Of a stretch of DNA of 64,000 bases, positions 308 through 62,692 are shown one piece after another. The notes under the pieces were generated by a model. That model was not told where the DNA came from, searched no databases, and saw nothing but the letters and a program-made list of their open reading frames with translations. Source of the DNA: Planctomycetota bacterium (lineage in GTDB: Bacteria; Planctomycetota; MHYJ01; JACPRB01); assembly GCA_016190175.1 (NCBI GenBank), contig JACPRC010000202.1:11750-75749 (forward strand), read 5' to 3'. Each line of letters opens with the position of its first letter. The stretch's first letter is position 1. The position numbers were made by a program, and so were the translations under genes.

Positions 308-318
308 AGGCGAGCTTT

Positions 319-402
319 CAGCCATCAGCGATCAGCCCTCAGCAAGACCGACGAAACGCCCTTCTTGCTGATAGCTGATAGCTGATTGCTGACGGCTGAT
401 CG
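319..402. repeat. REP-like imperfect inverted-repeat element (copy A of the GCTGAT/CAGCC family) between convergent genes; probable bidirectional terminator
   Basis: cagcgatcagccctcagcaag ... cttgctgatagctgatagctgattgctgacggctgatcgcttg. Both arms are complementary. Related copies at about 19186 and 29478 share catcagcc..tcag and gacggctga cores. Confidence 0.5.
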
Positions 403-414
403 CTTGCACGGCGG

Positions 415-11230: not shown

Positions 11231-11263
11231 ACCAAAAGTTGACTGTCAACTTTTGGTGTGCTC
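11231..11263. promoter_or_regulatory. Near-perfect 33-bp AT-rich palindrome (candidate operator) in the divergent kinase / oxidoreductase intergenic region
   Basis: gcaccaaaagttgac-t-gtcaacttttggtgtgc. Flanked by CT-rich tracts (ctccccctctcc x2) and a TACAAT -10-like hexamer about 20 bp upstream of the korA-like ATG. Confidence 0.5.
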
Positions 11264-11320
11264 CCCCTCTCCTTGTCTCCCCCTCTCCCTTTCGGCTACA
11301 ATTCCCCCGTGCCCCTCTTC

Positions 11321-18200: not shown

Positions 18201-18871
18201 CGGACGCGGAGATCGACGCCATCGCGGCCGCGCATTCGTGGCCGTCCACGAGCGACCCCGACAAGATGCGCGGCTACATGCTCCACCGCGGCACGGTGCC
18301 GCGCGAGGCCGCCGCCGCGCTCGTAGCGGCGTTCATGGAGAAGCACGGGCTGCCCGCGTCGAAGGAGGCCGGCTTCGACTGGTACTGCGACGAGCTCGCG
18401 GCGGGATTCGTCTACGATCGCGGGGAGGAGAAGGTCGCCGCGTGGCGCCGCGCCGCGCGGTCGGCGGCCGTGCACTGGCGGTTGAGTGTCGAGATCGGCC
18501 GCGAGCCGGACTTCGTCGAGACGCGGCGGAGCGCCTTGCGACAGGTCGAGGCCGCGGTGGAGCGGTTCTACCTCGATCTGGCGAAGCAGTCCGCGGCGGA
18601 AAAGGTACCCCTGGACGATGTCGCGGCCGGCGTCGCCCGCGTGCGGCGCGCGCAGGAGGAGGCCGCCGCGAAGTGGTACCGCTATCGCGAGGCGCTGGAG
18701 AAGTGGATCGGGGATCCGTCGCAGGAGGAGAACGACGACCTGAAGGCGCTGCGGAAGGACCTCGACGCGGCGCGGCGCTCGCTGGCCGCGCGGCGGGAGG
18801 AGCTGCGCGCGCGCGTGACGAAGAAGGAGGAGGCGCGGCTGGTGCTGAGAGGGATTCTCGAACAGCCGTAG
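18155..18871 (+). CDS. Hypothetical secreted protein
   Basis: ggaggaaaacc SD before ATG. MHALAFALALAAGG signal-like N-terminus. No recognisable domain. Confidence 0.4.
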   Translation: MHALAFALALAAGGLTDAEIDAIAAAHSWPSTSDPDKMRGYMLHRGTVPREAAAALVAAFMEKHGLPASKEAGFDWYCDELAAGFVYDRGEEKVAAWRRAARSAAVHWRLSVEIGREPDFVETRRSALRQVEAAVERFYLDLAKQSAAEKVPLDDVAAGVARVRRAQEEAAAKWYRYREALEKWIGDPSQEENDDLKALRKDLDAARRSLAARREELRARVTKKEEARLVLRGILEQP

Positions 18872-18898
18872 CGCCCCGGAAGATGGCGCCATGGAGCG

Positions 18899-19150
18899 GG
18901 AACGCCCCGTTCACACTCGGGAACGTCCCGTTCCCGCTCGGGAATGTCCCGGTCGCACCCGGGAAGCCGGCGCATCGATCCGGGAGCCCCGCGTTCCGAG
19001 TCGGGAACGCGCCGTCCACACTCGGGAACGTCCCGTTCCCGGTCGGGAAGCCGCCGCATCGATCCGGGGACGCCGCGTTCCGAGTCGGGAACGCCCCGTT
19101 CGCACTCGGGCATCCCTTTCGCGGATCGGGCTGCGGCCCTGCCGAAAGAA
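18899..19150. repeat. Tandem array of about 12 copies of a 21-bp unit (GGGAACGNCCCGTTCNCNCTC), with a higher-order about 105-bp periodicity
   Basis: Units begin every 21 nt: gggaacgccccgttcacactc, gggaacgtcccgttcccgctc, gggaatgtcccggtcgcaccc, gggaagccggcgcatcgatcc, gggagccccgcgttccgagtc, then the set repeats. Many units contain the mini-palindrome GAACG-NCC-CGTTC. Open in all three forward frames (heptad GNxPFxL in one). Confidence 0.8.
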
Positions 19151-19185
19151 CAAAGAGCAAAGGTAACCGTTCACGGGTCGCCATC

Positions 19186-19270
19186 AGCCCTCAGAGGTCA
19201 GCTTTCAGCCGGGCCGGCGCGACTCCCATCTTGCCGAAGACTGATTGCGGACGGCTGAACGAGCAAAGAA
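19186..19270. repeat. REP-like element (copy B of the GCTGAT/CAGCC family), flanked by purine-rich GAACAAAGA direct repeats
   Basis: ccatcagccctcagaggtcagctttcagcc...gactgattgcggacggctgaacgagc. Flanks are gaaagaacaaagagcaaagg (19135) and gagcaaagaacgaagaagaaagc (19262). Confidence 0.45.
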
Positions 19271-19309
19271 CGAAGAAGAAAGCGGGCTATCGGCGAGCGG
19301 CGCATCCCC

Positions 19310-20281
19310 TCACCGCTGCACCATCCCCGTCGGGTTGATCGTGATCTCCTTCTCCTCCGCCGGGGACTTGATCTTGATCCGCAGCTGGTTCGAGTGCTTC
19401 CGCGGGTCCAGCCGCCCCTCGCCGTCGAAGTGGATCACGAATTCCGTCTGCTTCGGCGCGAGGTATCCCTGGGGCAGGTCGAACTTCGCCTCGCTCGGCA
19501 GCAGGTACCGCTCGCGCGCGAAGATGAGGCTCACGCGGAACTCGTCGAGGATCCCCTGGCAGCCGCCCTTCGACGCGCCGAGCACGAGCGCCTGCCCCTT
19601 CGTCCACTTCATCGTGACCGCTCCCGTCGCCAGGAGCGCGTCGTTGACGACGAGCTGCGCCTCGCGGCCGTTGAAGACGAGGTGGATCCGGTACCAGCGG
19701 TCCGAGCCGCGGAAGGTCACGCTCCCCGACGAGAGCGTGGCCGTGCCGATCCGCGCGACGAGCTGGCCGTTCGCCTCGATCGACATCTCGAGCTGCGGCC
19801 CGATCGCGCACAGCATCTGCCGCCGCGGCGCGTCGACACGATAGAACCAGAACTCGATCGCGACGCCCTGGTCCTCGGCGTACACCGGAAACTCCCCGCA
19901 GTCCACGGTCGTCGAGCCCGTCATCTGGAGCGCCGAGCCGACGCGGCCCGGCACGAGCACGCCGTTCGTGACGCGGCCGTTCTTCCCGAACGCCCCCGTC
20001 GTGACCGTGTCCTCGAAGTGCCACTCCCCCGCGGTCTCCTTGGTCATCGCGTAGACGGCGTTGCCGGCGACGTCGAGGACGACCCATGCGGGGCTGCGCG
20101 TGGCGCGCGCCTCGTCGCGCGCGGCGCGCAGCACGGCGACGAGATGTCCCGCGGCCGCGCGCACGCCGAGGTCGCGGTTCGCGTTGCGGTACAGGGCGAC
20201 GGAAAGCCCGAGGAGCAGGGAGATGATCACGATGACGACGACGACCTCGATGAGGGTGACGCCGGCCCGGTGGTTGGTCAT
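19310..20281 (-). CDS. Prepilin-type N-terminal cleavage/methylation domain protein (pseudopilin/type IV pilin-like)
   Basis: Start MTNHRAG|VTLIEVVVVIVIISLLLG: a short leader ending in G followed by the TLIE hydrophobic helix. The ORF-track extension upstream begins at a TTG inside the hairpin repeat. Confidence 0.65.
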   Translation of the reverse strand: MTNHRAGVTLIEVVVVIVIISLLLGLSVALYRNANRDLGVRAAAGHLVAVLRAARDEARATRSPAWVVLDVAGNAVYAMTKETAGEWHFEDTVTTGAFGKNGRVTNGVLVPGRVGSALQMTGSTTVDCGEFPVYAEDQGVAIEFWFYRVDAPRRQMLCAIGPQLEMSIEANGQLVARIGTATLSSGSVTFRGSDRWYRIHLVFNGREAQLVVNDALLATGAVTMKWTKGQALVLGASKGGCQGILDEFRVSLIFARERYLLPSEAKFDLPQGYLAPKQTEFVIHFDGEGRLDPRKHSNQLRIKIKSPAEEKEITINPTGMVQR

Positions 20282-20349
20282 TGGTGGTTGGTGGTTGGTG
20301 AAGAGGGCACGCACCCCGCACCAACCACTAACCACCAACCACCAACCAC
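20271..20349. repeat. Hairpin element E1 built from tandem heptamers (GGTTGGT)n / (ACCAACC)n
   Basis: ggtggttggtcattggtggttggtggttggtg-aagagggcacgcaccccg-caccaaccactaaccaccaaccaccaaccac. Lies between the pseudopilin-2 stop and the pseudopilin-1 start codon, and the ATG is inside one arm. Confidence 0.6.
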
Positions 20350-21056
20350 TAGAATTGCCGGAGATCGTCCTCGGTTCCGAGGATCCCGTCCGGTCCCGGG
20401 GAAACGAGCTGGTACTTGTCGGGCATCGCCCACGAGCTTCCCGCCCCCTTGAGCGGCTTGAAGGACTGCTCCTGGCCGCCCGCCGCGCCGAGGTAGGTCG
20501 TCAGGGGCGCGGGAGCCCGGGCGTAGTCGTTGTGGTGGAGATAGACCAGCGGGTTCCCGAAGAAGTCCGTGTACTCCAGGAGCGCGTACGCCCCCGACTC
20601 CGCGAGATAGGACTCCGTCGGGTTCTTGGGGAGATCGTCGCCGTCCGCGTTCGCGTACATCTCCTGCGTAGGCGGCTGGTACAGGATGCCGCCCTTCTGC
20701 TTGCTCGAGAGACTCGCGACGAGGGACTCGACTCCGTTGTTCGTGTTGTTCGGGACCTTCACCTTGTAGTCGGCGAGGGTGGACGGCGGGTAGTCGCGCC
20801 AGCGCGTGTGGTAGTTGTCGAGCGCGCCCTGCATCGTGGAGAGCATCGCCTGCGTGTTCGAGATCTTCGAGGTCTTGATCGCGTAGGTGACGCCCACCAG
20901 GGCGAGCGAGGCGAGGATGCCGATGATGACGATGACGACGAGGATCTCGAGCAGGGTGAAGCCGGCCCGGGGATACGGGGAGATGGGGGGATGAGGGGAT
21001 GGGGGGAGCGTCCGCCACTCCCCCCATCTCCCCATCTCCCGATCTCCCGATCTCAT
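20349..21056 (-). CDS. Prepilin-type N-terminal cleavage/methylation domain protein (GspG/PulG-like pseudopilin)
   Basis: ...PRAG|FTLLEILVVIVIIGILASLALVG: a canonical GspG-type N-terminus. Start is M1 (21056, overlapping the upstream stop) or M8 (21035). The leader coding region is made of GGGGATG-type heptamers. Confidence 0.65.
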   Translation of the reverse strand: MRSGDREMGRWGEWRTLPPSPHPPISPYPRAGFTLLEILVVIVIIGILASLALVGVTYAIKTSKISNTQAMLSTMQGALDNYHTRWRDYPPSTLADYKVKVPNNTNNGVESLVASLSSKQKGGILYQPPTQEMYANADGDDLPKNPTESYLAESGAYALLEYTDFFGNPLVYLHHNDYARAPAPLTTYLGAAGGQEQSFKPLKGAGSSWAMPDKYQLVSPGPDGILGTEDDLRQF

Positions 21057-21058
21057 TT
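20986..21058. repeat. Hairpin element E4 built from (GGGGATG/GGGAGAT)n heptamers and their complement
   Basis: ggggagatgggggatgaggggatgggggga-gcgtccgcc-actccccccatctccccatctcccgatctcccgatctc. Spans the junction between the TPR gene and pseudopilin-2, and contains both candidate start codons. Confidence 0.5.
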
Positions 21059-24013
21059 TCGCCTCTCGTATATCCTAACATCGTCGAGGGCCAGGGTGAA
21101 CCGGATCCTCCGCTCGCCGCGCGCCCAGAACGAGACCTTGAGCCCGCCCTTCCCCTGAAGGTTCGTGAAGGGCCACGGCATCTCGGCCACCTTCGCGTAG
21201 TCGCGCTTCGCGGGATCGTAGATCTGCACCTCGATCTGGGACGCATGCTCCTTCCTCCGGCGCTCGAGGCGCAGCCGGATCTCCTGCGGCGCGCGGTACT
21301 GCTGGTTCGCCGTCTGCCACTCCCCCTCCGTGATCTCGTGGCGGTCCTTCAGGAAGCGGTCGCTGGTCCAGGTGGAGACGCGCAGCCGCCGCGCCCGGTC
21401 GAACGCGAAGTGGAGCCCGGGCCGGGGGGCGTTCTCCTGGACGCGGGGCCCGTAGAGGGAGACCCCGAACTCGAACGAGACGGAGGGCTGCGCCTCCGGA
21501 TAGAACGTCGCCTCGAGCCTGGAGAACTTATCGATCGCCAGATTGTCCCGCTCCAGAAGGGAGGGCACCCAGTCGTCGCCCGGTTCCCCCGCGAACAGGC
21601 AGCGCTGGCCGGAGAGGACGATGGGAACGCGCGGCCGCTCGTCGACCTCGATCCACTGGTTCCGCCCGCGGCCCTGGATGCGGTCCGAATCCTCGCGGCT
21701 GAACGTCTCGTCCACGGCGTAGGAGGTGGCCGTCCACTCGTCGATCTTCTTCACCGTCTCCGCCGCCTCCTGGACGAACCGCAGGGAGACCGGATCCTCG
21801 TAGTCCTTGTCCTTGACCTCCGAAGCCGCCTTGAAGTACGACCGCGCCGCGGCCAGCCGCCCCGCGGCGTCTTCGCTCCCGAACAAGTAGTGCAGATAGC
21901 CGTAGGCGTACTCGACGATCGGGTCCGCCCGGAGGCTGGCGTCGCGCACGAGCTGCTTCGCGTGGTCGAGCCTCTTGCGCGCCGGCTCGGGCCGCCGCAG
22001 CAGCAGATCGGCGCAGGCGAGCGCGAGCTGGACGTTGATCCGGTTCTGGTCCTCGATCCGCCCGAACAGCGTGGATGCCCGGACCAGATCGGCCCGGGCC
22101 GACGCGCGCCAGGCGTCGGGGACGAGACGGATCTGGTCGCGCGCCGCCTCGCCCCACAGACGGCCCAGCGCGGGGAGCGACCGGTCCGCCGCCTCGCAGA
22201 GCGCCGCGAGGCGCGCGGCCTCCGCCGTCTGCGACTCCGCCAGCCGCAGGCACGACACGGCCACGCCCGAGCAGGCCGGCAGGAAGAGGGGCTCGCGGCG
22301 CAGCGCCTCGCGCGAACCCGCCAGCGCCGCGTCCAGGTTGCCGGACCGCAGCATCAGTTCGCCCCTGAGGTAGTTCGCGTACGCGTGGCCGGGATCGGCC
22401 GTGAGCGCCGCGTCGAGCCGCTTCGCGGCGTCCTCGCCGTTGCCCCCGAGCAGGAACGCGAGCGCCTGACAGGCGGGGACGTCGGCGTCGGCCGGGTCGC
22501 GCTCCGCGGCCTTCGCCAGCAGCGCGGCCGCCTCGGCCGGCTTGCCCGCGAGGAGGTACAGGTGCGCGAGGTTCGTCCACGCCTCGCCGGCGTACTGGTC
22601 CTGGAGGAGCGCCGCCGCGAACGCCGACGACGCGTCCTTCCAGCGGCCCTCGAACGCGTGGCAGCAGCCGAGCGCGTTCCACGCCTCGGCCGACTTCGCC
22701 TTGGACGCGGCATCCAGGTCGGGGAGCGCCTCCGCGAAGCGGCCGAGCGACAGGTGCGCGCGTCCCCGCGCCGTCAGCGCCGCCGTCCGCAGCTCCGGCG
22801 TGAAGTTCTTCTGGTCGTTCGAGTACTTCCCGAACATGTCCGTGACGATCTCCACCGTGCGGGCGGGGTCGCCCAGCTCCACGGACATCCTTGCCTGGCC
22901 GACCTTGCCGCGGAACGAGAGGGGCGAGAGCACGCTCTTCCCGTAGGCGTCGAGCGCCGACTCGAAGCAGCCCAGCTTCCGCAGGCCTTCGGCGACGCGC
23001 AGCCACAGCTCCTCGCGCATCGCGGGCGCCGCCTGAACGCACAGCTCGTAGTGCGCGAGCGCGGCGTCGAAGTCGCCCTGCTCCTCCAGGATCTCGCCGA
23101 GGAGCAGGATCGCGCGCGCATGGTCGCGCTTGAGTTCGAGCGCGCTCCGCAGATCCTGCGTCGCGGACTCGATCATCCCGCGCTGCCGGCACTCGTCCGG
23201 GGTCCCGTGGCAGAGGCGGTTCGCCTCCGCGTCGGCCTTCGGCTGGAGGGGCTCCGGTTCGTGGCACCACCTCGCGAGCTCCACGCGCCGGTCCGCCTCC
23301 TGCGGCGCGCCCGCGAGCTTCTTCCGGCGGTACGCGAGCTGCTCCGAGTTCTTCCAGCTATGCTGGATCTCCTTGATGGCGCTCTTCTTCCAGGTGTGAC
23401 TGCCCGCGCCGCCCTTCAGGCCCAGCACGAGGACGTCGGGCGCCTCCTCCTGGCGCGCGCAGCCGGCGACGCACTTCCCCTCGTCCGGCTGCTGCGCGCT
23501 GTTGAAGATCACGACGCAGAACTCGCGCTCCCGGTCGTCGCTCTGGTCCTTGAAGGGCGTGAGCGCAGGTTCCTCGATCTTCTTGAGCGCCTCCAACTGG
23601 TCGGCCGCCGGCAGGTCGGCCTCCGCGACCACGGCTCGCGTGCCCGGCGCGGGGTACTTCGCCTTCGCCTTCTCGTTGTAGATCCGCAGGGGCGGAGCAG
23701 GCCGGAAGAGCGGGACGACGGGGTTCTCGATCCGCGGCATGGGCGCGGCGATGGCCGGGACCGGCAGTTGCGTCGTGCTCTCCGTCAGGAAGACGTTGCG
23801 TCCGCCCCAGTACTTCTCGAAGTCCGCGTCCACCGGCCGGAACTGGAGCCCGGGCCAGGGGCGGTGCTCGCGGGCGCGGGACGCCGGGAAGGCGTCGTCT
23901 CCCGGGCCGCCGGGGCCGCCCGCCACGCCCGCGAGGAGCAGGACGGCCGCGACCGCGGCGCATGCGGCGAACGCGATCTGCTCGCGCGTGAGCGACTTGA
24001 GCCAGTCCTTCAT
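21053..24013 (-). CDS. Large TPR-repeat protein with N-terminal membrane anchor
   Basis: MKDWLKSLTREQIAFAACAAVAAVLLLAG transmembrane segment, then more than 20 TPR-like repeats over 986 aa. Confidence 0.7.
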   Translation of the reverse strand: MKDWLKSLTREQIAFAACAAVAAVLLLAGVAGGPGGPGDDAFPASRAREHRPWPGLQFRPVDADFEKYWGGRNVFLTESTTQLPVPAIAAPMPRIENPVVPLFRPAPPLRIYNEKAKAKYPAPGTRAVVAEADLPAADQLEALKKIEEPALTPFKDQSDDREREFCVVIFNSAQQPDEGKCVAGCARQEEAPDVLVLGLKGGAGSHTWKKSAIKEIQHSWKNSEQLAYRRKKLAGAPQEADRRVELARWCHEPEPLQPKADAEANRLCHGTPDECRQRGMIESATQDLRSALELKRDHARAILLLGEILEEQGDFDAALAHYELCVQAAPAMREELWLRVAEGLRKLGCFESALDAYGKSVLSPLSFRGKVGQARMSVELGDPARTVEIVTDMFGKYSNDQKNFTPELRTAALTARGRAHLSLGRFAEALPDLDAASKAKSAEAWNALGCCHAFEGRWKDASSAFAAALLQDQYAGEAWTNLAHLYLLAGKPAEAAALLAKAAERDPADADVPACQALAFLLGGNGEDAAKRLDAALTADPGHAYANYLRGELMLRSGNLDAALAGSREALRREPLFLPACSGVAVSCLRLAESQTAEAARLAALCEAADRSLPALGRLWGEAARDQIRLVPDAWRASARADLVRASTLFGRIEDQNRINVQLALACADLLLRRPEPARKRLDHAKQLVRDASLRADPIVEYAYGYLHYLFGSEDAAGRLAAARSYFKAASEVKDKDYEDPVSLRFVQEAAETVKKIDEWTATSYAVDETFSREDSDRIQGRGRNQWIEVDERPRVPIVLSGQRCLFAGEPGDDWVPSLLERDNLAIDKFSRLEATFYPEAQPSVSFEFGVSLYGPRVQENAPRPGLHFAFDRARRLRVSTWTSDRFLKDRHEITEGEWQTANQQYRAPQEIRLRLERRRKEHASQIEVQIYDPAKRDYAKVAEMPWPFTNLQGKGGLKVSFWARGERRIRFTLALDDVRIYERRK

Positions 24014-24032
24014 TCGACCACCAGGCTTGGTG

Positions 24033-24112
24033 GTTGGTGGTTGGTCGTTCGTGGTTGGTGAAGAGACTCTTCACCAACCACCAACCACGAACCACGAACC
24101 ACTCTCCTCATT
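24033..24112. repeat. Hairpin element E2, (GGTTGGT)n arms around a palindromic AAGAGACTCTT loop
   Basis: ggtggttggtggttggtcgttcgtggttggtg-aagagactctt-caccaaccaccaaccacgaaccacgaaccac. Fills the intergenic gap between the PilO-like stop and the TPR gene start. Confidence 0.6.
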
Positions 24113-24902
24113 CGACCGCCTTCCCCCCCTCGATGGGCTTCTCGGGATCCAGGACGAGCCCGCAGACGACGAAGTCCGCGTCGTAGTTCTCCTGTCCGCC
24201 CGTCGCCGCGCCGCCGATGGCTGCGGCGTCCACGCACAGGTACGGACTCTGCTGGAACGCGTGGGCAACCCGGAAGACGCCCTCCAGGCTCCCCGACACG
24301 CGGATGCGAACCGCCACCTTGCGGAGGAACCGCTCCCCTCCCGTCTCTTTCGGACCCTCGATCGAGATGTCGATATCGGCGAAGCGGTCCCCCGGTTTCA
24401 TCACGGCGATCGCGGAGCGCACGGCCGCATCGGCCACGGCCAGCCGGAGGAGGGCCTCCTCCGCCGCGACCTCGTCCCCCTGGATCCGCGAGATCACGCT
24501 CGCGAAGCCGAAGTCCTCCCGGAACTCCCCCAGCCCCGCCGAACCGTTCAGCGTCTTCAGCTCGTCCCGGACGTTGAGATACACGTCTTTGAAATGGTCC
24601 TCGTGCTTCCCCTTCCCCCGGAACCGGTCCGGCAGGGCGAAGCGGTGCGTCTTCACGGCGTCGCCGAGTTTCTGGCGCAGGTTCTTGAGCTCCGTGTCCG
24701 CCTGGGAGATCGCCGCGTCGCTCGGCACGCCGCCCGAGGACTGCGACCGGTAGTTCCGCTCCTTCGCCTCGCGCGTCTTCGCCTCCTTCGCGGCCCCCGC
24801 GCTGATCGGCCGATAGATCAGGACGAGATGGAGGATCACGCAGAGCGCGATCGCGCCCACGGCGATCAGGAACTTCCGGTTCTCCTTCAGCCAATACTCC
24901 AT
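24108..24902 (-). CDS. Membrane-anchored hypothetical protein, possibly a PilO-like pilus assembly component
   Basis: MEYWLKENRKFLIAVGAIALCVILHLVLIY transmembrane segment, then a coiled-coil/periplasmic domain. The PilO call rests only on its position after the PilM/N gene and its size/topology. Confidence 0.4.
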   Translation of the reverse strand: MEYWLKENRKFLIAVGAIALCVILHLVLIYRPISAGAAKEAKTREAKERNYRSQSSGGVPSDAAISQADTELKNLRQKLGDAVKTHRFALPDRFRGKGKHEDHFKDVYLNVRDELKTLNGSAGLGEFREDFGFASVISRIQGDEVAAEEALLRLAVADAAVRSAIAVMKPGDRFADIDISIEGPKETGGERFLRKVAVRIRVSGSLEGVFRVAHAFQQSPYLCVDAAAIGGAATGGQENYDADFVVCGLVLDPEKPIEGGKAVE

Positions 24903-24958
24903 GTTCTACGTTCTACGTTCTACGTTCTACGTTCCACGTTCCATGTTCTACGTTTCAC
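24903..24958. repeat. Tandem heptamer array (GTTCYAY x 8), the left arm of a long-range inverted repeat around the four-helix-bundle gene
   Basis: gttctacgttctacgttctacgttctacgttccacgttccatgttctacgtttcacg, immediately 5' of the PilO-like start codon on the minus strand. Confidence 0.75.
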
Positions 24959-25355
24959 GCTTTGATCGCGACGATCCACGATTGCGCGGATCCGGAGCAG
25001 ACGCGAGGTACCGAAGGAACCCTCCGATCAGCTCCTTGACCTTCCTGGCGTGCGAATAGAGCGAGTCGAACGACTCGCCGGAGATGTAATCCTGGTCCAT
25101 ACACAGGTACAGATGCGACTGGAGCTCGGAGGCGGACCTTCTGGCGAGCCGGAGGAAGCGAGCGAATTCGCGGTTGGAGCCCCCGTCGAAACCCTCCGCG
25201 ATGTTGGCCATGGCCGATACGGCGGCCCGACGCATCTGTCTGCGCAAGTCGGGGTCCGCGCGGAACGCGTCCGTACGGGTCGCTTCGTACACCGTCTTGG
25301 CCAGACTCCGTGCCTCCGTCCATGCCTCGATCTCCTCGAACTTCGTGATCGTCAT
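24948..25355 (-). CDS. Four-helix-bundle protein (TIGR02436 / 23S rRNA intervening-sequence protein family)
   Basis: MTITKFEEIEAWTEARSLAKTVYEATRTDAFRADPDLRRQMRRAAVSAMANIAEGFDGGSNREFARFLRLARRSASELQSHLYL: a canonical family signature (M15 of the ORF). Confidence 0.75.
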   Translation of the reverse strand: MTITKFEEIEAWTEARSLAKTVYEATRTDAFRADPDLRRQMRRAAVSAMANIAEGFDGGSNREFARFLRLARRSASELQSHLYLCMDQDYISGESFDSLYSHARKVKELIGGFLRYLASAPDPRNRGSSRSKRET

Positions 25356-25373
25356 GATCGCACGCCTCCCGTG

Positions 25374-25417
25374 ATCAGAACAGGGAACGTGGAACATGGA
25401 ACGTGGAACATGGAACG
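25374..25417. repeat. Tandem heptamer array (GAACRYG x 6), the right arm and reverse complement of the 24903-24958 array
   Basis: gaacagggaacgtggaacatggaacgtggaacatggaacgtc, between the PilM/N stop and the four-helix-bundle start. Confidence 0.75.
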
Positions 25418-25421
25418 TCCT

Positions 25422-27254
25422 TCATTCGTATCGCGCCTGGCAGATCACCGCGATCTCGAAGCGCCGCCATCCCGGACGGTCGGCGTCCGTCAGTCCGGAC
25501 GTCCGCGCGAGCTGCCCTCTCTGCTCCTTCGTCAGCCGCCGCTTGATCTCGTCGAGGATCCGGTTCGCCTTCCCCGGCGATTCGGCGCTCACCTCCCCCA
25601 CCACCAGGACGACGCGCGCGTCGCCCTCCCATTCGAGCAGGTCGGCGCAGTCCCCTTTCGGGAAGATGCGCGGTTCCGCCTGCGGGGGAAAGTCCATGCG
25701 GACCCGGAACGCATCTTCCGTGCGGTCCTCGATCTCGCCGATCACCAGCCCGGCCTCCGCGTGGCGGAAGAGGCAGCGCCGCCCGCCCTTCCCCTCGCGC
25801 GTGCGGTCCCCGGAGGGATCGACGATCTTCAGCTCGCGCAGCATGATCCCCTCCTCCTTGAGCGCGAACTGCCGCACCTCCGAATGGACGTCCAGAAGCG
25901 CGCGGGAGGCGAGGGTGGCCGTCGCGATCCGGTCGAGCCTGGCCGCGACCTCGCGCTGGTCCGCCTCGATCCGGTCGAGCTTCGCGATCCGATCGAGGTT
26001 CGCGGAGGACTGCTTTTCGAACCCCTCCCGGCGCGACGTCTGGGACGCGCGGCGCACGGCGGCGAAGCCGGTGATGACGAGGAGCGCGACGAGGAGGGCG
26101 GCCGCTCCCGCGGCGACGTAGGACCACGCCCGGAAGAAGTCGCGCCTCTTCTTGACCGCGTCCGGCAGGATCGAGAGCATGGCCTTGTCCGCCGGCAGGA
26201 GGGAGAGCTGCGCGAGACCCAGCGGCACGGCGAACTCCGTGGGAAGCGAGCGGAAGTCCTCCCCGCCCGCGGCCTCCACGCCCGAGGCGTCGACGCCGGC
26301 GATGAACGGGTCGAAGAGCTCGACGGGCACCTTGAGCGGGCTCTGCTGAAGGGAGCTCTGGAGATACTCGGGCAGCCCGCGCAACCGCGCGCCGCCGCCC
26401 GAAAGCAGGATGCGATCGACGGACAGCTCGCGGTCGCCGAGCTCCACGCGCGCGTGGTTGACGCAGGACTGGATGAAGCCGGAGAGCTGGCCCGCGGCCG
26501 TGCGGATCGCGGGCCGGATCTCCTCCTCCTTCGGATCCGCGTTGTCGGACGCGGGCAGGATGCTGCCGTAGCGGATCTTCAGCCACTCGGCCTCGTCGGG
26601 CCCCACGCCCGCGGCGGCCGCGATGTTCTGGTCGAAGATGCGGGCCCCCGTGGAGACGTTGCGCGCGTAGATGAGCTTCCCGCCCCGGACCAAGGCGACG
26701 TCCATGTTGTCCGCGCCCAGGTCCAGGACCATGTGCGTCCCGCCCGCATCGCCGTAGGCGGTCCGGAAGGCGGCGCACAGCGCGAAGGCGTTCGGCACGG
26801 CGTCCCGGACGTCCACCCCCGCCCGCCGCGCCACCTCGAGCCGCTCGTCCACGTAGGGCTTCTTGCCCACGCCCACCATGGCGAGATACTGTTTGAAGTA
26901 CGCGTCGGGCTCCCGCAGGGTGCAGAAGTCCGCATAAAGCTGCTCGTCCCCTTCGCGGCGCTGGTCCAATTCGTAGCCCATCATCGCCCGGTAGTTCGCC
27001 GGCTTCATGGCGGGCTGCTGCACGACCTGGAGGTTGATGTCGCGGCCGGAGAGTCCGACCACGCCGACGCGCCGGCCGCCCCCGTCGCCCAGCGCCTCGT
27101 GGAGGATCTTCATCAGCAGAGGCTTGCGCTCCTCGGGCTTGCCGACCCTCGGAATGCGGCGGCGGGCGACGCCGGTGACGACGAATCCACGGAGGCCGCG
27201 CTGGAGCGCGACCACCTTCACCGCGCTGTTGCCCAGATCGATCCCGAGTCCCAT
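25422..27254 (-). CDS. Type IV pilus assembly PilM-like actin-fold ATPase fused to a PilN-like transmembrane coiled-coil segment
   Basis: MGLGIDLGNSAVKVVAL (PilM N-terminal motif). Actin-like fold through about 350 aa, then a transmembrane helix (WSYVAAGAAALLVALLVITGF) and coiled coil. Confidence 0.6.
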   Translation of the reverse strand: MGLGIDLGNSAVKVVALQRGLRGFVVTGVARRRIPRVGKPEERKPLLMKILHEALGDGGGRRVGVVGLSGRDINLQVVQQPAMKPANYRAMMGYELDQRREGDEQLYADFCTLREPDAYFKQYLAMVGVGKKPYVDERLEVARRAGVDVRDAVPNAFALCAAFRTAYGDAGGTHMVLDLGADNMDVALVRGGKLIYARNVSTGARIFDQNIAAAAGVGPDEAEWLKIRYGSILPASDNADPKEEEIRPAIRTAAGQLSGFIQSCVNHARVELGDRELSVDRILLSGGGARLRGLPEYLQSSLQQSPLKVPVELFDPFIAGVDASGVEAAGGEDFRSLPTEFAVPLGLAQLSLLPADKAMLSILPDAVKKRRDFFRAWSYVAAGAAALLVALLVITGFAAVRRASQTSRREGFEKQSSANLDRIAKLDRIEADQREVAARLDRIATATLASRALLDVHSEVRQFALKEEGIMLRELKIVDPSGDRTREGKGGRRCLFRHAEAGLVIGEIEDRTEDAFRVRMDFPPQAEPRIFPKGDCADLLEWEGDARVVLVVGEVSAESPGKANRILDEIKRRLTKEQRGQLARTSGLTDADRPGWRRFEIAVICQARYE

Positions 27255-27257
27255 GTC

Positions 27258-29390
27258 CTATCCACCCGAACGGATCTGATCCAGCATCCTCCGCGCCTCC
27301 TCGCCCGTCTCCGTCGAGCCGTACGAAGCGACGATCCCGGCGAGGATCGCCTCCGCCAGCGCCTTCCGGCCCGCCTCCAGGCACTGCCGCGCCCGGTCCA
27401 GCAGTTTGCGCGGCCGGTCCGACCCACCGGGCACGGCCGTCACGTCCGCAATACGCTTGCGGAGCGTGCGGGCCTTCGAAAGGTACGGCTCCCCGGACCA
27501 GAGCCGCTCGTACCGGTCCACCTCGACACCCGCGGCCTCCAGTTCCGCCTGGAGGGCGACCAGTTCGGCGGCCAGGCCCCTCGACTCGGCGATGCGCCAG
27601 TCCTCCGACTCCCGCTGCTCCAGTTCCGAGATGAGGGCCGCGATCTCGCGCGCGGCCGACTCGTCGAGCGTCGAGTCGCCCTGCGCGGCCCGCAGAACCT
27701 GCAGCGCCCGGAACGGCTGGTCTTTCGTCAGATCCCGCGCCTCGGCCCTGGGGTCCTTCCTCGACGCGCGATCCGCCAGGCCGCGGAGGCGGAAGGCCGC
27801 CAGCACTTTCCCCTCGGTATCGGTGACGGCGAACGGCTGCACGAGACGGTTCCCTTCCCGCACCGCCGGCCGCAGGCGCCGGTCGACGTAGACGATCCGA
27901 TAGTCTTCGCCCGCCGTGAACTCCAATTGCGCAACCGGTTCCTCCGGCAAGCGCAGACGGTCCGCCCGCGGGACGACCGCCCAGAGATCGACCCGACCCA
28001 CTTGCGCCAGGTCGGACGCCTTGAATTCGTAGGCGATCCCGAGATCGTCCTTCGCGCTCCAGAAGATCGACATCTCGTACGGGACCGCGGCGCCGCTCAC
28101 CGGATGGGCCGCGGCACCCTGGACGACGATGCGTCCCTCCTCCCTCCGGACGGACGCGGGCGACAGGAGCTGGGAGGTCGCGCCCTCGAGATCGTTCTCG
28201 AGACGGAAGTGGAGGTCGGACATGACCGCGTGAGCCCCCCGGAGGATCGTGACCGCGCCGCCCCGGGCGACGAGGATGCGGAACGGCCCCGCCTCCATCT
28301 CCTCGCGCGCCTTCCCCGCGGGCTTCCCGACGATGCGCACGTCGTCGAAGTAGATGAGACCCGCGCGTCCCGCCGTCGCGAGCGCGAGTCTCAGTTCCCT
28401 CACGCCGGGCGGCACGTCGAACGTGTCGCGGATCGCGATCCAGTCGGCCCCCTTGGAGACCGGCGCGGAGAACTCCTCGAAGAGGACCGCCCCGTCGCGG
28501 AGCCACGCGACCTTCACCGCGGCGGAGCCGGCGAAGTCGCCCCACTTGGCCCATGCCGACACTTCGAAGGACTTGTGCGACCCGACGGCGATCCTCTCGG
28601 AGTACTCTACTTCCGACTGCGTCTCCGCGGGCGCGGGCCCCTTCCGCAGTTCCAGGGCCCTCTTCCCCGTGCGCGCCGCCGCCTCCGTGACGGACACGGA
28701 AGAGGAGCCCGGAGGATGAAGGGCCCAGTTCGTCGGCTTTCCGGGCGCGGCCCACTCGAAGCCTCCTTCGTCGCGCAGGAGGTTCTCTTTGTCTTCTCCG
28801 CCCCTGGTGCCGCGGCCGGGCAGAACGAGCGCGAGGACGGTCAGGCCGACGAGAGCGACGGCGACGGAGACGGCGATCAGCAGGCGCCGCAGGTTCAGGC
28901 CCGACGAGGTCCAGGCCCCGATGTCCTTCACGAGAGCGGCCGCCGTCCTGCGTGCCTCCGTCTTTTTCGGGGCGGGGGGGACCGCCGGTTGCGCGGAGCC
29001 CGACGCGGGTTTCGACCCCGAGGCTGGGGCTTCCGCCGGAGGGGCCGTCATTCGCTCCGTCTTGACTTTCGTGTCGCCGGCCGACTTCCTCGCGGCGCCG
29101 CTGTCCCGCTTCACCTCGAACCAGATGTAGGTCTGGCCGATGTGGATGCGGTCGCCCGGTTCGAGCCTGCGCTCCCAGACGCGCCCGCCGTTGAGGAGCG
29201 TACCGTTCATGCTGCCCCTGTCCACGAGCGTCACGACGCCGTTCGCCAGCACGACCTCGCAATGCTCGCGGGAGATGTTGGCGTCGCCGACGGGGACCTG
29301 GCACTTGGAGGAACGGCCGATGACGTTGGGACCTTCGCGGAGCTCGACAGTCCACTCCCGGTCCAGGTGCTGGATGATCAGCTTCGGCAT
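27258..29390 (-). CDS. FHA-domain membrane protein
   Basis: N-terminal FHA: VIGRSSKCQVPVGDANISREHCEV...DRGSMNGTLLNG...GDRIHIG. Central transmembrane helix (LLIAVSVAVALVGLTVLALVL) and a large extracytoplasmic domain. Stop is 1 nt from the PilM/N start. Confidence 0.7.
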   Translation of the reverse strand: MPKLIIQHLDREWTVELREGPNVIGRSSKCQVPVGDANISREHCEVVLANGVVTLVDRGSMNGTLLNGGRVWERRLEPGDRIHIGQTYIWFEVKRDSGAARKSAGDTKVKTERMTAPPAEAPASGSKPASGSAQPAVPPAPKKTEARRTAAALVKDIGAWTSSGLNLRRLLIAVSVAVALVGLTVLALVLPGRGTRGGEDKENLLRDEGGFEWAAPGKPTNWALHPPGSSSVSVTEAAARTGKRALELRKGPAPAETQSEVEYSERIAVGSHKSFEVSAWAKWGDFAGSAAVKVAWLRDGAVLFEEFSAPVSKGADWIAIRDTFDVPPGVRELRLALATAGRAGLIYFDDVRIVGKPAGKAREEMEAGPFRILVARGGAVTILRGAHAVMSDLHFRLENDLEGATSQLLSPASVRREEGRIVVQGAAAHPVSGAAVPYEMSIFWSAKDDLGIAYEFKASDLAQVGRVDLWAVVPRADRLRLPEEPVAQLEFTAGEDYRIVYVDRRLRPAVREGNRLVQPFAVTDTEGKVLAAFRLRGLADRASRKDPRAEARDLTKDQPFRALQVLRAAQGDSTLDESAAREIAALISELEQRESEDWRIAESRGLAAELVALQAELEAAGVEVDRYERLWSGEPYLSKARTLRKRIADVTAVPGGSDRPRKLLDRARQCLEAGRKALAEAILAGIVASYGSTETGEEARRMLDQIRSGG

Positions 29391-29477
29391 GAAAGGGCCG
29401 GAATCCCCTTGTGGTCCGCCGTCCGCTCCAACGGTCTCTGTACCTTATTCGCGCAAGGGCGGGGGGTCAAGGAAAAG

Positions 29478-29560
29478 CCTCGCGGCCGCCAATCAGCCTC
29501 TAGCCTTTGGCCATTAGCCGGAGGCCACTCGCGTCCAGCTAACGGCTGACAGCTAAGGGC
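29478..29560. repeat. REP-like element (copy C of the GCTGAT/CAGCC family)
   Basis: aatcagcctctagcctttggccattagccggagg...cagctaacggctgacagctaagggctaatcc. Confidence 0.45.
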
Positions 29561-29605
29561 TAATCCTTCCGGCTCGGAGCCTCCGCGGCCAGGCGACGAA
29601 ACCGC

Positions 29606-29633
29606 TTGACATAATCCATACGTCTACTAGAAT
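29606..29633 (+). promoter_or_regulatory. Sigma-70-like promoter candidate upstream of rny (about 300-nt leader)
   Basis: TTGACA-16 nt-TAGAAT (cgcTTGACAtaatccatacgtctacTAGAATcc). Confidence 0.35.
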
Positions 29634-29927
29634 CCGGTCAGACGTACCCGGTCCCCTTCCGCATGAGGTCCCTGTACGGCGGAAGGTTTAAGATAGATTG
29701 CGGTGGCGCGAACCCGGCCAGCGGTTGAGCAGACAGATCCGACCCCACTGGGGATGTGGAGATGGTGGGAGATACACGGACGTTCCGCGTTTCCCGTGGG
29801 GGTTTGATTTCGGGCGATCACGGCGGACGTTTCGGGGACTGAACCGCTCCGCCTCCTCGCCGTCCCGGACCGGGTGCACTTCCCGCGATCGTGGACCGGC
29901 ACTCTTCCAGCATGGGGGTGCTGAGCC

Positions 29928-31466
<1,539 letters not shown>

Positions 31467-37305: not shown

Positions 37306-38729
37306 CCACCGGAAAGAACAAAGAACAGAGAACAAAGAAGAGAGAGGGCGGGGGAAGGATCCCCCGCACCCCCTCTGCCGCCCGGGCCTTGCGAAGAGGA
37401 GGGGGCTCGGGGGAGACTTCCCGCGGCCCTTTGTTCTTCGTTCTCTGTTCTGTGTTCTTTCCGCTCTCGGCATGCGAAACCGCGGCGCCTCCCCCCCGGC
37501 GCCGCGACGCGGAACCTCCCGATCGTCCGCCCGTACGCGAAACGCGCCGCCCGCCCGCGCCCACGCAGGAGAAGACGTTCGAGGACGTCGAGCGCGAGCT
37601 CGGCCTCGCTTCGGGCACCCTCAAGGCGGACCTCGAGGCCGAGTACCAGGCGGAGACGGGCGACCTCCTGGCCGTCACCTGCCTCAGCCACAAGAGCCTC
37701 ACGCAGGAGGCCGCCGTCTCGCCGGACGGGAAGCTCGTCCTGACGGGGATCGGGAGCGTCGTCGTGCGCGGGCTGACGCTGGCGCAGGCGGAGACGGCGA
37801 TCACGGAGGCGGCCGCCGCCGCGGGCGTGCGCAAGCCGCGCTTCGCGGTCTCCGTGAAGACCCTCGGAAAGAAGTACGTCACGCTCGTCGGGCCGCAGAT
37901 GACCGGAGGCCGGCTGGAGATCCACGGCCGCGGCACGATTCTCGAGACGCTCGCCGGCGCGGGCTGGAAGCCGGACCGCCGCTCCGTCCGCCGCCTCGCC
38001 CTCGTGCGCCGCGAACGCACGAGCGTGCTCGACCTCGAGCAGATCGCCGGCACCGCCCGCGTCTCGCTCAACCTCAAGCTCCGCGCCAACGACATCCTCA
38101 TCGTCGTGGAAAAGGACCCCGTGGACGTCAAGGGGAGCGTCCAGTTCCCCGGCACCTACGCCGTGCCGCCCACCGGCGTGCTCGAGGTCCGCGACGCGAT
38201 CGCGCTCGCCGGCGGGCTGAAGTACCCGGTGGACGTGCGGACCGTGCGCGTCCTCCACGCGGACGGCCGCTCGGCCACCTTCGACCTCAACGACTACCTG
38301 TTCCGCCCGGGCGCCGCGCCGTCCTGCGTCCTCCGTCCGGGAGACACCGTCTTTTTCCCGCAGCAGCGCGAGTTCAGCGTCTTCGTGCTCGGGATGGTGA
38401 AGAAGCCCGGTCAGGTCAAGGTGCCGGGCCCGATCACCGTGAGCCGCGCTCTCGCCATGGCGGACCACGAGCGCTTCGGCGCGGTGCTCTCGCACTGCAG
38501 CCTGGTCCGCGGCTATCCCGATAAACCCGAGGTGATCGGGATCGACTTCAACGCCCTCTTCCGGGGCGACACGCGGTTCGACCTCGTGATGAACGACGGC
38601 GACGTGCTCTACGTGCCGGAGAGCGCGCTTTCGAACGTGCTGGACCTGGTGGAGCGGATCCTCCGGCCGTTCGCCGGAGCGACCCCGACGGCGGTGCAGA
38701 TCTACACGGCGACGCAGATTGGAAAGTGA
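37302..38729 (+). CDS. Polysaccharide export lipoprotein (Wza-like, SLBB-domain family)
   Basis: ATGA overlap with the upstream gene. Long basic n-region then LFFVLCSVFFPLSAC (lipobox). Polysaccharide-export and SLBB-like segments (GDLLAVTC..., ...VRPGDTVFFPQ, ...GDVLYVPES). Confidence 0.6.
   Translation: MTTGKNKEQRTKKREGGGRIPRTPSAARALRRGGGSGETSRGPLFFVLCSVFFPLSACETAAPPPRRRDAEPPDRPPVRETRRPPAPTQEKTFEDVERELGLASGTLKADLEAEYQAETGDLLAVTCLSHKSLTQEAAVSPDGKLVLTGIGSVVVRGLTLAQAETAITEAAAAAGVRKPRFAVSVKTLGKKYVTLVGPQMTGGRLEIHGRGTILETLAGAGWKPDRRSVRRLALVRRERTSVLDLEQIAGTARVSLNLKLRANDILIVVEKDPVDVKGSVQFPGTYAVPPTGVLEVRDAIALAGGLKYPVDVRTVRVLHADGRSATFDLNDYLFRPGAAPSCVLRPGDTVFFPQQREFSVFVLGMVKKPGQVKVPGPITVSRALAMADHERFGAVLSHCSLVRGYPDKPEVIGIDFNALFRGDTRFDLVMNDGDVLYVPESALSNVLDLVERILRPFAGATPTAVQIYTATQIGK
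37312..37465. repeat. About 36-nt inverted repeat (GAAAGAACAAAGAACAGAGAACAAAGAAG ... complement) around a GC-rich core, inside the Wza-like signal-peptide coding region
   Basis: Left arm ggaaagaacaaagaacagagaacaaagaagagagaggg encodes KNKEQRTKKRE. Right arm ccctttgttcttcgttctctgttctgtgttctttcc encodes LFFVLCSVFF. About 32/36 complementary. The same GAACAAAGA motif flanks REP copy B at 19.1-19.3 kb. Confidence 0.5.
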
Positions 38730-38812
38730 TTGGTGGTTTGTGGTTGGTGGTTTGTGAAGAGACAGTATCCTCTTTCTTCACTGACCACTAACCACCAACT
38801 ACGAACCACCAG
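38728..38812. repeat. Hairpin element E3, (GGTTKGT)n arms, between the Wza-like and Wzc-like genes
   Basis: gattggtggtttgtggttggtggtttgtg-aagagacagtatcctctttcttcac-tgaccactaaccaccaactacgaaccacc. Confidence 0.6.
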
Positions 38813-38823
38813 GTTGAGTTGAC

Positions 38824-42383: not shown

Positions 42384-42860
42384 TCACGCCTCGGGAGCGG
42401 CGGGGCACCGCTCCTCGAGCCGGCGGAGACGCTCGCCATGAAGGTCGAGGTTCCTGCCAATCTTCTCGGAAGTGCTCGCCAGGTGATCGAGCGTCTCCGT
42501 GACGCGGCTGATGTCGTCCTTGGTTGCCATCGTCTCGCGCATCCGTGCCGTCTCCTGCTGGAGATCCACGATCGCCCGCGCGTGGGGCTTCAGGGCCTCC
42601 AGGAGGTTCGCCTTGGTGGGGTAGTTTGCGAGCGCGGCCTGGAGGTCCTCCTTGGTGGGGTAGTTTGCGAGCGCGGCCTTGAGATCCTCCCTTAGATCCT
42701 TTCTCAGATCCTTTCTCAGATCCTTCCTGAGATTCTTCCTCAGATCCTTGCTGAAGTCCCCCAGGAGTTCCTTGATCTCCTTCCGGAGACCCTCCCGGAG
42801 TTCCGCCATCTCGCTTCCGAGTTCGGCGCGGGTGACAGGGCGGCCGTTGTTCTTCTCCAC
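42384..42860 (-). CDS. Coiled-coil hypothetical protein with internal 12-bp and 42-bp tandem repeats
   Basis: DLRKNLRKDLRKDLRKDLREDL from agatccttTCtc x about 6. LQAALANYPTKEDLQAALANYPTKANL from an exact 42-bp duplication (ggcctggaggtcctccttggtggggtagtttgcgagcgcggcc). Confidence 0.4.
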   Translation of the reverse strand: MEKNNGRPVTRAELGSEMAELREGLRKEIKELLGDFSKDLRKNLRKDLRKDLRKDLREDLKAALANYPTKEDLQAALANYPTKANLLEALKPHARAIVDLQQETARMRETMATKDDISRVTETLDHLASTSEKIGRNLDLHGERLRRLEERCPAAPEA

Positions 42861-49151: not shown

Positions 49152-49273
49152 TGGTGCATTGTACCGCCCCGGTGAGGGCGGCGCAAGAAAGGGCCCGGCG
49201 CTCGCCGGAATTTCCTCTCCTGCCGCCCGCACCGCGGTATAATGTATGGGTCAGCCGTCGACGGATCGATACG

Positions 49274-58537: not shown

Positions 58538-58640
58538 CCTGCCCCCTCTTCCCCTCCCCCCCTCTCCCTATCCCCCTCGATTCCCCTTGAAGCCCCCCGC
58601 CTTCGCCGCTACTCTGTCGCACCTCTTCAGAAAGGACCCG

Positions 58641-62638: not shown

Positions 62639-62647
62639 GGCCGCGAC

Positions 62648-62692
62648 GTTACGTTTCGTAACATGCCGCGTTACCATTCGTAACATGCCCGA
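62648..62692. promoter_or_regulatory. Two adjacent palindromic sites (GTTACG-ttt-CGTAAC and GTTAC-cattc-GTAAC), a candidate operator
   Basis: cgacGTTACGtttCGTAACatgccgcGTTACcattcGTAACatgcc. This is a direct repeat of a 19-bp unit, each unit internally palindromic, in a lower-GC intergenic region. Confidence 0.4.

Follow-up and report, generated by a model that had tools for sequence, protein, structure and literature searches.

A 64,000-nucleotide (nt) stretch of the genome of a Planctomycetota bacterium (assembly GCA_016190175.1, contig JACPRC010000202.1, positions 11,750 to 75,749; hereafter the window, with a G+C content of about 69%) carries four hairpins, E1 to E4, whose arms are built from tandem 7-nt or 8-nt units and which lie in a minus-strand pseudopilus operon and, for E3, between the Wza-like and Wzc-like genes of an export cluster. 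We consider it probable that these hairpins are members, lacking an open reading frame (ORF), of a class of heptamer-repeat palindromes, and that they are selfish insertions tolerated where translation is carried through them. The class, as we would delimit it, comprises palindromes with arms of tandem 7-nt (occasionally 8-nt) units, and its gene-carrying form would bear a four-helix-bundle (4HB) gene of the PF05635/TIGR02436 family, one example of which, termed here the cassette, interrupts the same operon.

Hairpins with tandem-repeat arms

From its first gene to its last, the operon codes for an FHA protein, a PilM-like fusion (PilMN), a 264-amino-acid (aa) protein, a 986-aa TPR protein and two prepilin-type proteins, pseudopilin-2 and pseudopilin-1. 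Repeat finders recovered inverted repeats with tandem-repeat arms at all four places at which a preliminary description of this DNA had reported them (Table 1): E2 at the junction of the pilO-like (264-aa) and TPR genes, E4 at the start of pseudopilin-2, E1 between the two pseudopilins, and the GGTTGGT-type copy E3 between the Wza-like stop codon and the GTG (38824) of the Wzc-like gene. That description had placed a hairpin at every junction of the operon, which goes too far, as the genes for FHA and PilMN are separated by a 3-nt gap without one. It had also read all arms as heptameric, and had located the downstream start codon inside the 3′ arm of both E1 and E4. Period 7 was called by Tandem Repeats Finder together with a purpose-written detector for E1, E2, E3, the cassette and two further elements (313–404 and 37310–37463), whereas E4 has a period of 8 and is not a GGGGATG heptamer array; and the pseudopilin-1 ATG indeed lies in the 3′ arm of E1, in a unit with two substitutions from the consensus (CCAACCACC to CCAATGACC), whereas the ATG at E4 (21056) stands at the 5′ foot of the hairpin.

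Of the paired complementary inverted arrays that our detector identified in the window, six have period 7 and one has period 8; periods 5, 6, 9 and 10 are represented by no pair, although arrays of periods 6 and 9 are common. The confinement of inverted pairs to periods 7 and 8 also holds across 890 kb of unrelated control DNA. These control sequences comprise 120 loci from a scan of a genome collection with the 15-mer GTGGTTKGTGAAGAG, nearly all of which are chance matches in coding sequence, with two real relatives (L036 and L062).

Folded as RNA in the sense of transcription, five elements are far more stable than shuffled sequences: −69.9 kcal/mol for E1 (z −8.4), −58.7 kcal/mol for E2 (z −7.7), −49.3 kcal/mol for E3 (z −5.0), −68.0 kcal/mol for E4 (z −4.6) and −112 kcal/mol for the element at 37310 (z −9.7), with none of 200 dinucleotide shuffles folding as well as E1–E4. 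The minimum-energy structure accounts for only 4–32% of the ensemble of E1–E4, and the centroid structure of E3 deviates from it, as would be expected if, as suggested earlier, more than one register of pairing is open to the arms.

The arms of the cassette bracket a protein that matches TIGR02436 with an E value of 5.6e-28 (97 bits against a cut-off of 24); its assignment to PF05635 is precomputed on its homologues. The gene has its own GGGAGG Shine–Dalgarno sequence, and its stop codon lies within the 3′ arm. Solved relatives are 2GSC (Xanthomonas XCC0516) and 2RLD, with five chains per deposition. The PF05635/TIGR02436 ORF is confined to the cassette and absent from E1–E4, and tblastn searches found no 4HB remnants in the ORF-less elements or in the control loci.

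Two other identities were considered for the hairpins and set aside. No terminator-like site was found at any hairpin in 18800–30000, where the 3′ flanks read GGGCCGG, CGGGCC and GGTCGAA, which excludes intrinsic terminators. Membership of a curated Rfam 15 family was rejected as well, as the scan of 18500–39500 returned only eukaryotic miRNA-precursor models, matched as generic hairpins (24–42 bits against thresholds of 40–105).

Filled and empty junctions

Homologues of the TPR protein with 56% (L121) and 46% identity (L122) are found on contigs with the same gene order, FHA–PilMN–PilO–TPR–pseudopilin2–pseudopilin1, and the junctions of both are gaps or overlaps of 0–4 nt, with neither hairpin nor cassette. 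Both export-cluster junctions beside a 54%-identical Wza homologue (L203) are likewise hairpin-free, with gaps of 8 and 4 nt. Because the orthologous operons keep the genes and their order without the hairpins, the latter are lineage-specific insertions, and no orthologous copy of any hairpin was found in the orthologous loci examined. Absence from orthologous operons, which the preliminary description had counted, if without consequence for expression, as a point against its own proposal of a control function, is what these three loci show.

In the alignment with the empty junctions, the cassette occupies precisely the 2 nt that separate the PilMN stop codon from the ATG that follows. On either side of E2 stands one copy of a 10-nt direct duplication (GGTCGAATGA in the sense of the mRNA). 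It includes the ancestral overlapping ATGA, and the stop codon is now provided by its first copy and the start codon by its second; a match of 10 nt was seen in 0 of the mismatched-flank controls shorter than 12 nt. On the basis of these alignments, we propose that the elements were inserted recently into ancestral ATGA stop/start overlaps or just inside cleavable N-terminal leaders, and that such sites would be the only survivable places for an insertion in tightly packed operons.

Separately, the 12-nt sequence CGAATGAAGGAC (minus strand) occurs both at the PilMN stop and left edge of the cassette (25410–25425) and at the reconstructed junction of the pilO-like and TPR genes (24005–24017); target preference, copying or chance could be behind this.

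Predicted translation through the elements

Each of the five ORF-less junction hairpins is traversed by an ORF that begins at or beside the preceding stop codon. At E1, E2 and E3 it is a separate relay mini-ORF (Table 1). That of E1 crosses the whole hairpin and its TGA overlaps the pseudopilin-1 ATG (ATGA), and the TAGTG arrangement at which it begins is the one that supplies the start codon in the orthologue of L122. The relay mini-ORF of E2 forms an ATGA overlap with the pilO-like stop and again with the TPR start, and that of E3 ends with its TGA 1 nt before the Wzc GTG.

The two remaining elements are read as part of the downstream gene. E4 lies wholly within the pseudopilin-2 ORF (20349–21056), in frame, after the second codon, and the pseudopilin-2 ATG overlaps the TPR stop codon as ATGA, just as in the orthologues. 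It adds about 27 codons, making a 32-residue prepilin leader (MRSGDREMGRWGEWRTLPPSPHPPISPYPRAG/FTLLE, compared with MRRG/FTLLE in L122). At the 37310 element, the ATG at 37302 forms an ATGA with the upstream stop codon and the frame is open through all 154 nt (MTTGKNKEQRTKKRE...PLFFVLCSVFFPLSAC/ETAAP), the 5′ A-rich arm encoding a basic n-region and the 3′ T-rich arm the hydrophobic h-region and the lipobox LSAC of the Wza-like protein; the Wza orthologue of L203 has an ordinary lipoprotein signal peptide (MSRGCAFLAAGLLLSC). Judged from its sequence, ATG 37302 is the apparent start of the Wza-like lipoprotein, whose signal peptide would then be the whole element. The protein as deposited has 425 aa and begins instead at GTG 37452 in the 3′ arm, seven residues before the lipobox cysteine, and exemplifies a point for annotation, namely that start codons at hairpin junctions are easily mis-called.

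Other genomes hold comparable cases. Orthologous genes downstream of DUF1552 in L149 (4773–4893) and L178 (1962–2070), both with ATGA-overlap starts, read a (GTTCTTG)n...(CAAGAAC)n hairpin as a signal-peptide h-region and a hydrophilic N-terminus. In a metagenome-assembled genome (MAG) of Caldilineaceae (L066, 963–5524), five heptamer or octamer hairpins fall within the open frame of a polyketide synthase (at least 2314 codons), which meets no stop codon in them and reads them as Pro/Gly-rich linkers between tandem carrier-protein domains. Palindromic elements in an open, intact frame are found in E4, the 37310 element, L149, L178 and the L066 linkers. The loop of one L066 hairpin contains a second, one-armed (GGTTGAT)4 array.

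These arrangements suggest how the genes may survive the insertions. The elements would be co-transcribed with the operon and fold into stems of 26–38 bp. At E1, E2 and E3, ribosomes would stay on the message by way of the relay mini-ORF, which leads from the upstream stop, starting at it or at most 3 nt away, to the downstream start, ending at it or 1 nt before; E4 and the 37310 element would be translated as the prepilin leader and the lipoprotein signal peptide of the downstream protein. Continuous translation would unwind the stem and expose the next start codon, and we infer from this ORF geometry that it would keep the genes translationally coupled and limit the access of RNase III, cleavage of the stems by which is possible by analogy with the stems of 23S intervening sequences (IVS; PMC4990558).

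Association with four-helix-bundle genes

The preliminary description had also offered that the hairpins might be miniature relatives of the 4HB cassette, and it is this idea that the wider comparison bears out: hairpins and cassettes share their architecture and often their unit in many organisms, and the GTYC core of the cassette arms recurs in E2 and in the arms of the 37310 element. We collected 80 metagenomic loci encoding homologues 48–63% identical to the cassette protein, of which 62 had 200 nt on both sides of the gene. A period-7 array was present within 200 nt of the 4HB gene in 53 of these 62, against a background of one such array per 20 kb in the control loci, and a complementary period-7 pair bracketed the ORF in 29 of them, with period-8 pairs in four more. 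A GTYC core followed by three variable positions is common to 102 of 130 period-7 arrays and fits GTTCYAC of the cassette, GTTCTNT of the 37310 element and GTTCGTG, which makes up half of the E2 units. ORF-less hairpins adjoin cassettes in the same loci with an identical unit.

The cassettes occupy joints between co-oriented genes: 27 of 30 upstream neighbours and 30 of 34 downstream neighbours point the same way, and the array edges fall within a few nucleotides of the flanking stop and start codons. One junction, at which a DUF1592/DUF1588/DUF1585 cytochrome-like gene adjoins a DUF1552 gene, carries the cassette in many contigs of the Planctomycetota–Verrucomicrobiota–Chlamydiota (PVC) group (L146, L149, L167, L170, L176, L180, L183, L188, L194 and L197); either the insertion is ancient and was inherited, or the junction is a hot spot. 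Cassettes also occur in sugar-nucleotide operons.

Beyond the PVC group, a search of plasmids gave no matches at an E value of 1e-8, and matches at 0.01. All six plasmid-borne 4HB genes in finished sequences of cultured strains (two from Calothrix, one from Pseudanabaena, two from Nostoc and one from Riemerella) are bracketed by inverted heptamer arrays, each with a unit of its own. The one on Pseudanabaena galeata plasmid pPg_01 (L206, 1004–1654) sits between cas6 and cas4, with a (TTAGCTT)n/(AAAAGCT)15 hairpin before it and an (AAAAGCC)n array after it. ORF-less relatives are similarly dispersed: a Blastocatellia (Acidobacteriota) MAG (L036) carries (GTGGTTA)n GTGAAGAG...CTCTTCAC (TAACCAC)n, with the core found in E1–E3, and inverted-array elements are also present in control loci from a Peristeroidobacter genome (Gammaproteobacteria) and three Chloroflexota MAGs.

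The metagenomic contigs that bear 4HB genes are mostly about 1–3 kb long and often end in arrays, which suggests that the repeats break short-read assemblies; the elements are thus probably under-counted in MAGs. The kind of element is known, if unexplained, and its link to the 4HB gene looks new, as we found no paper that connects the 4HB family with heptamer arrays generally, the subscription literature lying outside our search.

Origin and role of the elements

The proposal most directly opposed to tolerated insertion is that the hairpins are adaptive: as RNase III sites or as hairpins controlling translation, they would determine how strongly adjacent pseudopilus genes are expressed relative to one another. 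The stems would suit such a role, being long, near-perfect double-stranded RNA of 26–38 bp, and the equivalent heptamer stem of the Coxiella IVS is cut by RNase III (PMC4990558); the stem of E1 encloses the start codon, which lies across from the nucleotides just after the upstream stop; elements stand at four junctions in a row; and in many PVC contigs the 4HB cassette recurs at the junction of the DUF1592-family and DUF1552 genes. We nonetheless regard it as unlikely. Orthologous operons with the same genes in the same order have tight, hairpin-free junctions (L121, L122 and, for the export cluster, L203), one operon would be served by four different sequence families, and the same families also stand between convergent genes and in a divergent promoter region. 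Moreover, the start codons of the ORFs that contain E4 and the 37310 element lie upstream of these hairpins, so that efficient cleavage of either hairpin would sever the start codon from its gene and inactivate it. The dedicated processing or translation-control role put forward in the preliminary description is thus not supported: on present sequence comparisons, no function dedicated to the pseudopilus operon is indicated, and the orthologues argue against one.

A second possibility, also improbable in our assessment, is that the elements arose where they stand and were never mobile, with slippage producing the heptamer arrays and fold-back or template-switch synthesis the palindromes. Five unrelated unit sequences in 64 kb would fit this, as would the lack of a target duplication at most elements, the unequal number of units in the two arms and the differing succession of their variants, and the resemblance of units to the adjacent target (GAACATG at the cassette and pilO-like start, GAGACGGG at E4, and ATGAAC starts in L149, L176 and L180). 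What local synthesis accommodates poorly is that E1, E2 and E3 have a unit and the GTGAAGAG/CTCTTCAC inner stem in common at three unrelated sites, that this core reappears in the Acidobacteriota MAG, that E2 is flanked by a 10-nt target duplication, and that the cassette brought a complete foreign gene with it.

Mobilization by an IS200/IS605-like transposase of the kind associated with repetitive extragenic palindromic (REP) sequences, the REP-associated tyrosine transposase (RAYT), would account for the similar size, hairpin shape and extragenic habit of the elements, and is very unlikely. There is no conserved GTAG/CGTC head, the arms ending in TGGTTGG, GGGGAKA, ACGTTCC and TCAGCC; the arms are tandem repeats of many unrelated units; and the associated ORF is a 4HB protein rather than a Y1 transposase. 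Insertion by RAYT or IS200-type enzymes is not known to make a target duplication such as the 10 nt at E2. Least credible of all is a role as G-quadruplex (G4) regulatory repeats, as proposed for the GGGNATC arrays of Xanthomonas and Nostoc: the GGTTGGT and GGGGAGAT arms are rich in G tracts, and related heptamers form G4 in vitro (PMC4692102), but the GTTCYAC, AAAGAAC and TCAGCCA families have no G tracts, and each G-rich arm is paired in cis with a C-rich arm at −49 to −70 kcal/mol, to which a two-tetrad G4 would lose.

The proposed reading of the elements as selfish or near-neutral insertions that the host would translate through has to contend with several findings of its own. Occupation of four of five consecutive junctions could mean targeting or function rather than survivorship. 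Of 29 cassettes and 27 further elements (eight in the window and 19 hairpins from other loci), E2 alone has a clean target duplication above the mismatched-pair control, which is too little to establish classical transposition. Neither a transposase nor another enzyme of mobility was identified in the window, where no search was aimed at a transposase matching the element ends. As for translation, the open frames through the stems are partly automatic, because arms made only of G and T, or only of A and C, cannot hold stop codons; the information in the relay ORFs resides only in their frame and end positions, each with a chance of about one-third. Relay ORFs are also absent at the junction hairpins of L036 and L066, where the downstream genes have strong Shine–Dalgarno sequences, which rules them out as a general rule.

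Further elements and genomic setting

The window holds at least five more elements or arrays beyond E1–E4 and the cassette (Table 1). Genes in the same orientation flank E1, E2, E3 and the cassette, convergent genes flank the 313–404 element, and the other two, E4 and the 37310 element, are inside ORFs. Around the degenerate hairpin downstream of pseudopilin-1, direct AAAGAAC-like half-arrays (19135–19290) form a nested arrangement that looks as if one element had been inserted into the array of another. Just downstream of the last gene of the operon (18897–19110), a 21-nt unit, CGGGAACGCCCCGTTCCCACT, is repeated about ten times with an 84-nt super-period; each unit forms a small palindrome, GGGAACG-N3-CGTTCCC, similar to the GTTCCAC unit of the cassette. 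One-armed, C-rich period-8 arrays in very short intergenic gaps at 11261–11289 and 58542–58587 (CTCCCCCT and CCCCCTCT) may be half-elements related to E4.

Profile searches of the genes flanking the hairpins matched PilM_2, TPR and the N_methyl prepilins, in agreement with the names given earlier, whereas the ‘pilO-like’ label has a sub-threshold GspM match only. The TPR protein has an identical counterpart in GenBank, tagged HYY17_14965, from a Planctomycetes MAG. Elsewhere, a single ORF of 2820 codons spans 49151–57613 on the plus strand. An intergenic gap at 62647–62689 contains two copies of a 22-nt direct repeat, CGTTACCATTCGTAACATGCCG, with an internal TTACG...CGTAA palindrome, which may be an operator-like site. 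At 42602–42749, in or beside a small minus-strand ORF, about 2.2 copies of a 39-nt unit precede about 5.7 copies of a 12-nt unit, AGATCCTTCCTC.

Table 1. Positions of the hairpins, the cassette and associated features in the window
Feature	Position	Strand	Description
Element	313–404		(TCAGCCA)n...(GCTGATA)n hairpin, between convergent genes
Element	19180–19262		Degenerate TCAGCC-type hairpin downstream of pseudopilin-1
E1	20270–20349	−	(GGTTGGT)n...(ACCAACC)n hairpin; arms 31 nt, 90% complementary
E1 flanks	20349–20351; 20279–20281	−	Pseudopilin-2 TAG; pseudopilin-1 ATG; E1 sits between
E1 relay mini-ORF	20278–20349	−	23 codons; GTG overlaps upstream TAG (TAGTG)
E4	20970–21048	−	Octamer-repeat hairpin GGGGAGAT/ATCTCCCC; arms 38 nt, 79% complementary
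E2 target-site duplication, TPR-start copy	24010–24019	−	TCATTCGACC on the plus strand
E2 relay mini-ORF	24010–24111	−	33 codons; from ATG of first duplication copy to TGA of second
E2	24027–24102 (inverted repeat 24030–24102)	−	(GGTTSGT)n GTGAAGAG-T-CTCTTCAC (ACSAACC)n; arms 36 nt, 89% complementary
E2 target-site duplication, pilO-like-stop copy	24108–24117	−	From flank alignment
Cassette	24898–25418	−	(GTTCYAC)n arms of 49 nt, 82% complementary, 399 nt apart, bracketing the 4HB gene
4HB ORF	24948–25355	−	135 aa; TIGR02436, PF05635
Element	29488–29560		Degenerate (NNNAGCC)n...(GGCTNAN)n inverted heptamers in divergent region upstream of FHA gene
Element	37310–37463	+	(AAAGAAC)n...84 nt...(GTTCTNT)n, in frame from ATG 37302
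E3 relay mini-ORF	38730–38822	+	30 codons; TTG directly after Wza stop codon 38727–38729
E3	38726–38811 (inverted repeat 38731–38811)	+	GGTTGGT-type hairpin with GTGAAGAG...CTTCAC inner stem; arms 26 nt, 88% complementary

Comparison with known systems

According to Mori et al. (bioRxiv 10.1101/309039), no intergenic repeat is more abundant across prokaryotes than tandem heptamers, and there is ‘no clear clue’ to what they do. Examples are the GGGAATC heptamers of Xanthomonas, which form 70–75 inverted pairs enriched between aligned ORFs, and the GGGGAYT arrays of Nostoc and Anabaena, known as short tandemly repeated repetitive (STRR) sequences; Rehm et al., who showed that related heptamers form G4 in vitro, read both as G-quadruplex motifs (PMC4692102). 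Like these repeats, the elements described here consist of 7-nt units in about three to six copies, and some of them (E1, E2, E3 and the cassette) likewise lie between co-oriented ORFs near stop and start codons; the arms here have at least three tandem copies, of period 7 except in E4, and the arrays are paired and convergent. They differ in that several unrelated unit families, most of them unable to form G4, coexist in one genome, that one family is octameric and that some elements are translated. The supplementary table of Rehm et al. lists, without comment, a GGGAATC array over the start codon of XCC0516 (PMC4692102), which is the 4HB protein of PDB entry 2GSC.

A close parallel to the cassette is the IVS of 23S rRNA genes in Coxiella and Leptospira, in which terminal inverted repeats likewise form a long stem around a PF05635/TIGR02436 ORF. 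In Coxiella, the IVS with its S23p ORF has tandem GACAGAT heptamers, in copy numbers that differ among strains, in a 28-bp stem, and RNase III cuts it inside the stem (Warrier et al., PMC4990558). In contrast to the IVS, the elements here are in mRNA operon junctions and ORFs rather than rRNA helices, and most copies are ORF-less; the Rfam scan of 18500–39500 gave no rRNA match, and all copies lie between or within protein genes.

These parallels lead us to a broader, tentative idea, which we think may well prove wrong: that PF05635/TIGR02436 4HB proteins (S23p, and relatives of Avd, the accessory protein of diversity-generating retroelements) are partners that recognize subfamily-specific 7-nt units, and that all heptamer systems form one selfish class. 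The pairs of 4HB protein and unit would be GTYCNNN in the PVC group, RGGGNNN in Nostoc, GGGAATC in Xanthomonas and GACAGAT in Coxiella, and a single system would take in the ORF-less hairpins, the STRRs of cyanobacteria, the repeats of Xanthomonas and the 23S IVS. If this is true, it is a system whose spread targets sites that are permissive at the RNA level, such as operon joints, rRNA helix tips, leader peptides and linkers, and it would explain the period-7 excess in prokaryotic intergenic DNA. Our analysis provides three handles on the question: a 4HB gene physically tied to heptamer arrays in at least five phyla; filled and empty sites that mark the elements as insertions at stop/start overlaps; and two ways in which genes may survive insertion, by a relay mini-ORF or by absorption into a cleaved leader, signal peptide or linker.

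Other families of small palindromes share single traits with the elements. Extragenic hairpins abundant between co-oriented and convergent genes are also typical of REP sequences, bacterial interspersed mosaic elements (BIMEs) and the REP doublets known as REPINs; no RAYT was seen in the window, and the only associated ORF is the 4HB protein. Correia repeat enclosed elements (CREE), enterobacterial repetitive intergenic consensus (ERIC) sequences and other MITEs (miniature transposable elements with inverted repeats) are palindromes of about 80–150 nt that lie between genes, are co-transcribed with them and have a target duplication, and Correia hairpins are substrates of RNase III. Palindrome and target duplication recall E2, whereas MITEs have a fixed, transposase-matched terminal repeat in place of the many heptamer families seen here, most copies of which have no detectable duplication. 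Rickettsia palindromic elements (RPEs), finally, are selfish palindromes that stand in frame within genes at structurally permissive positions. Their sequence family is unrelated and their arms have no tandem units, but their in-frame behaviour is that of E4 and the 37310 element, and the permissive positions here are cleaved leaders, signal peptides and inter-domain linkers.

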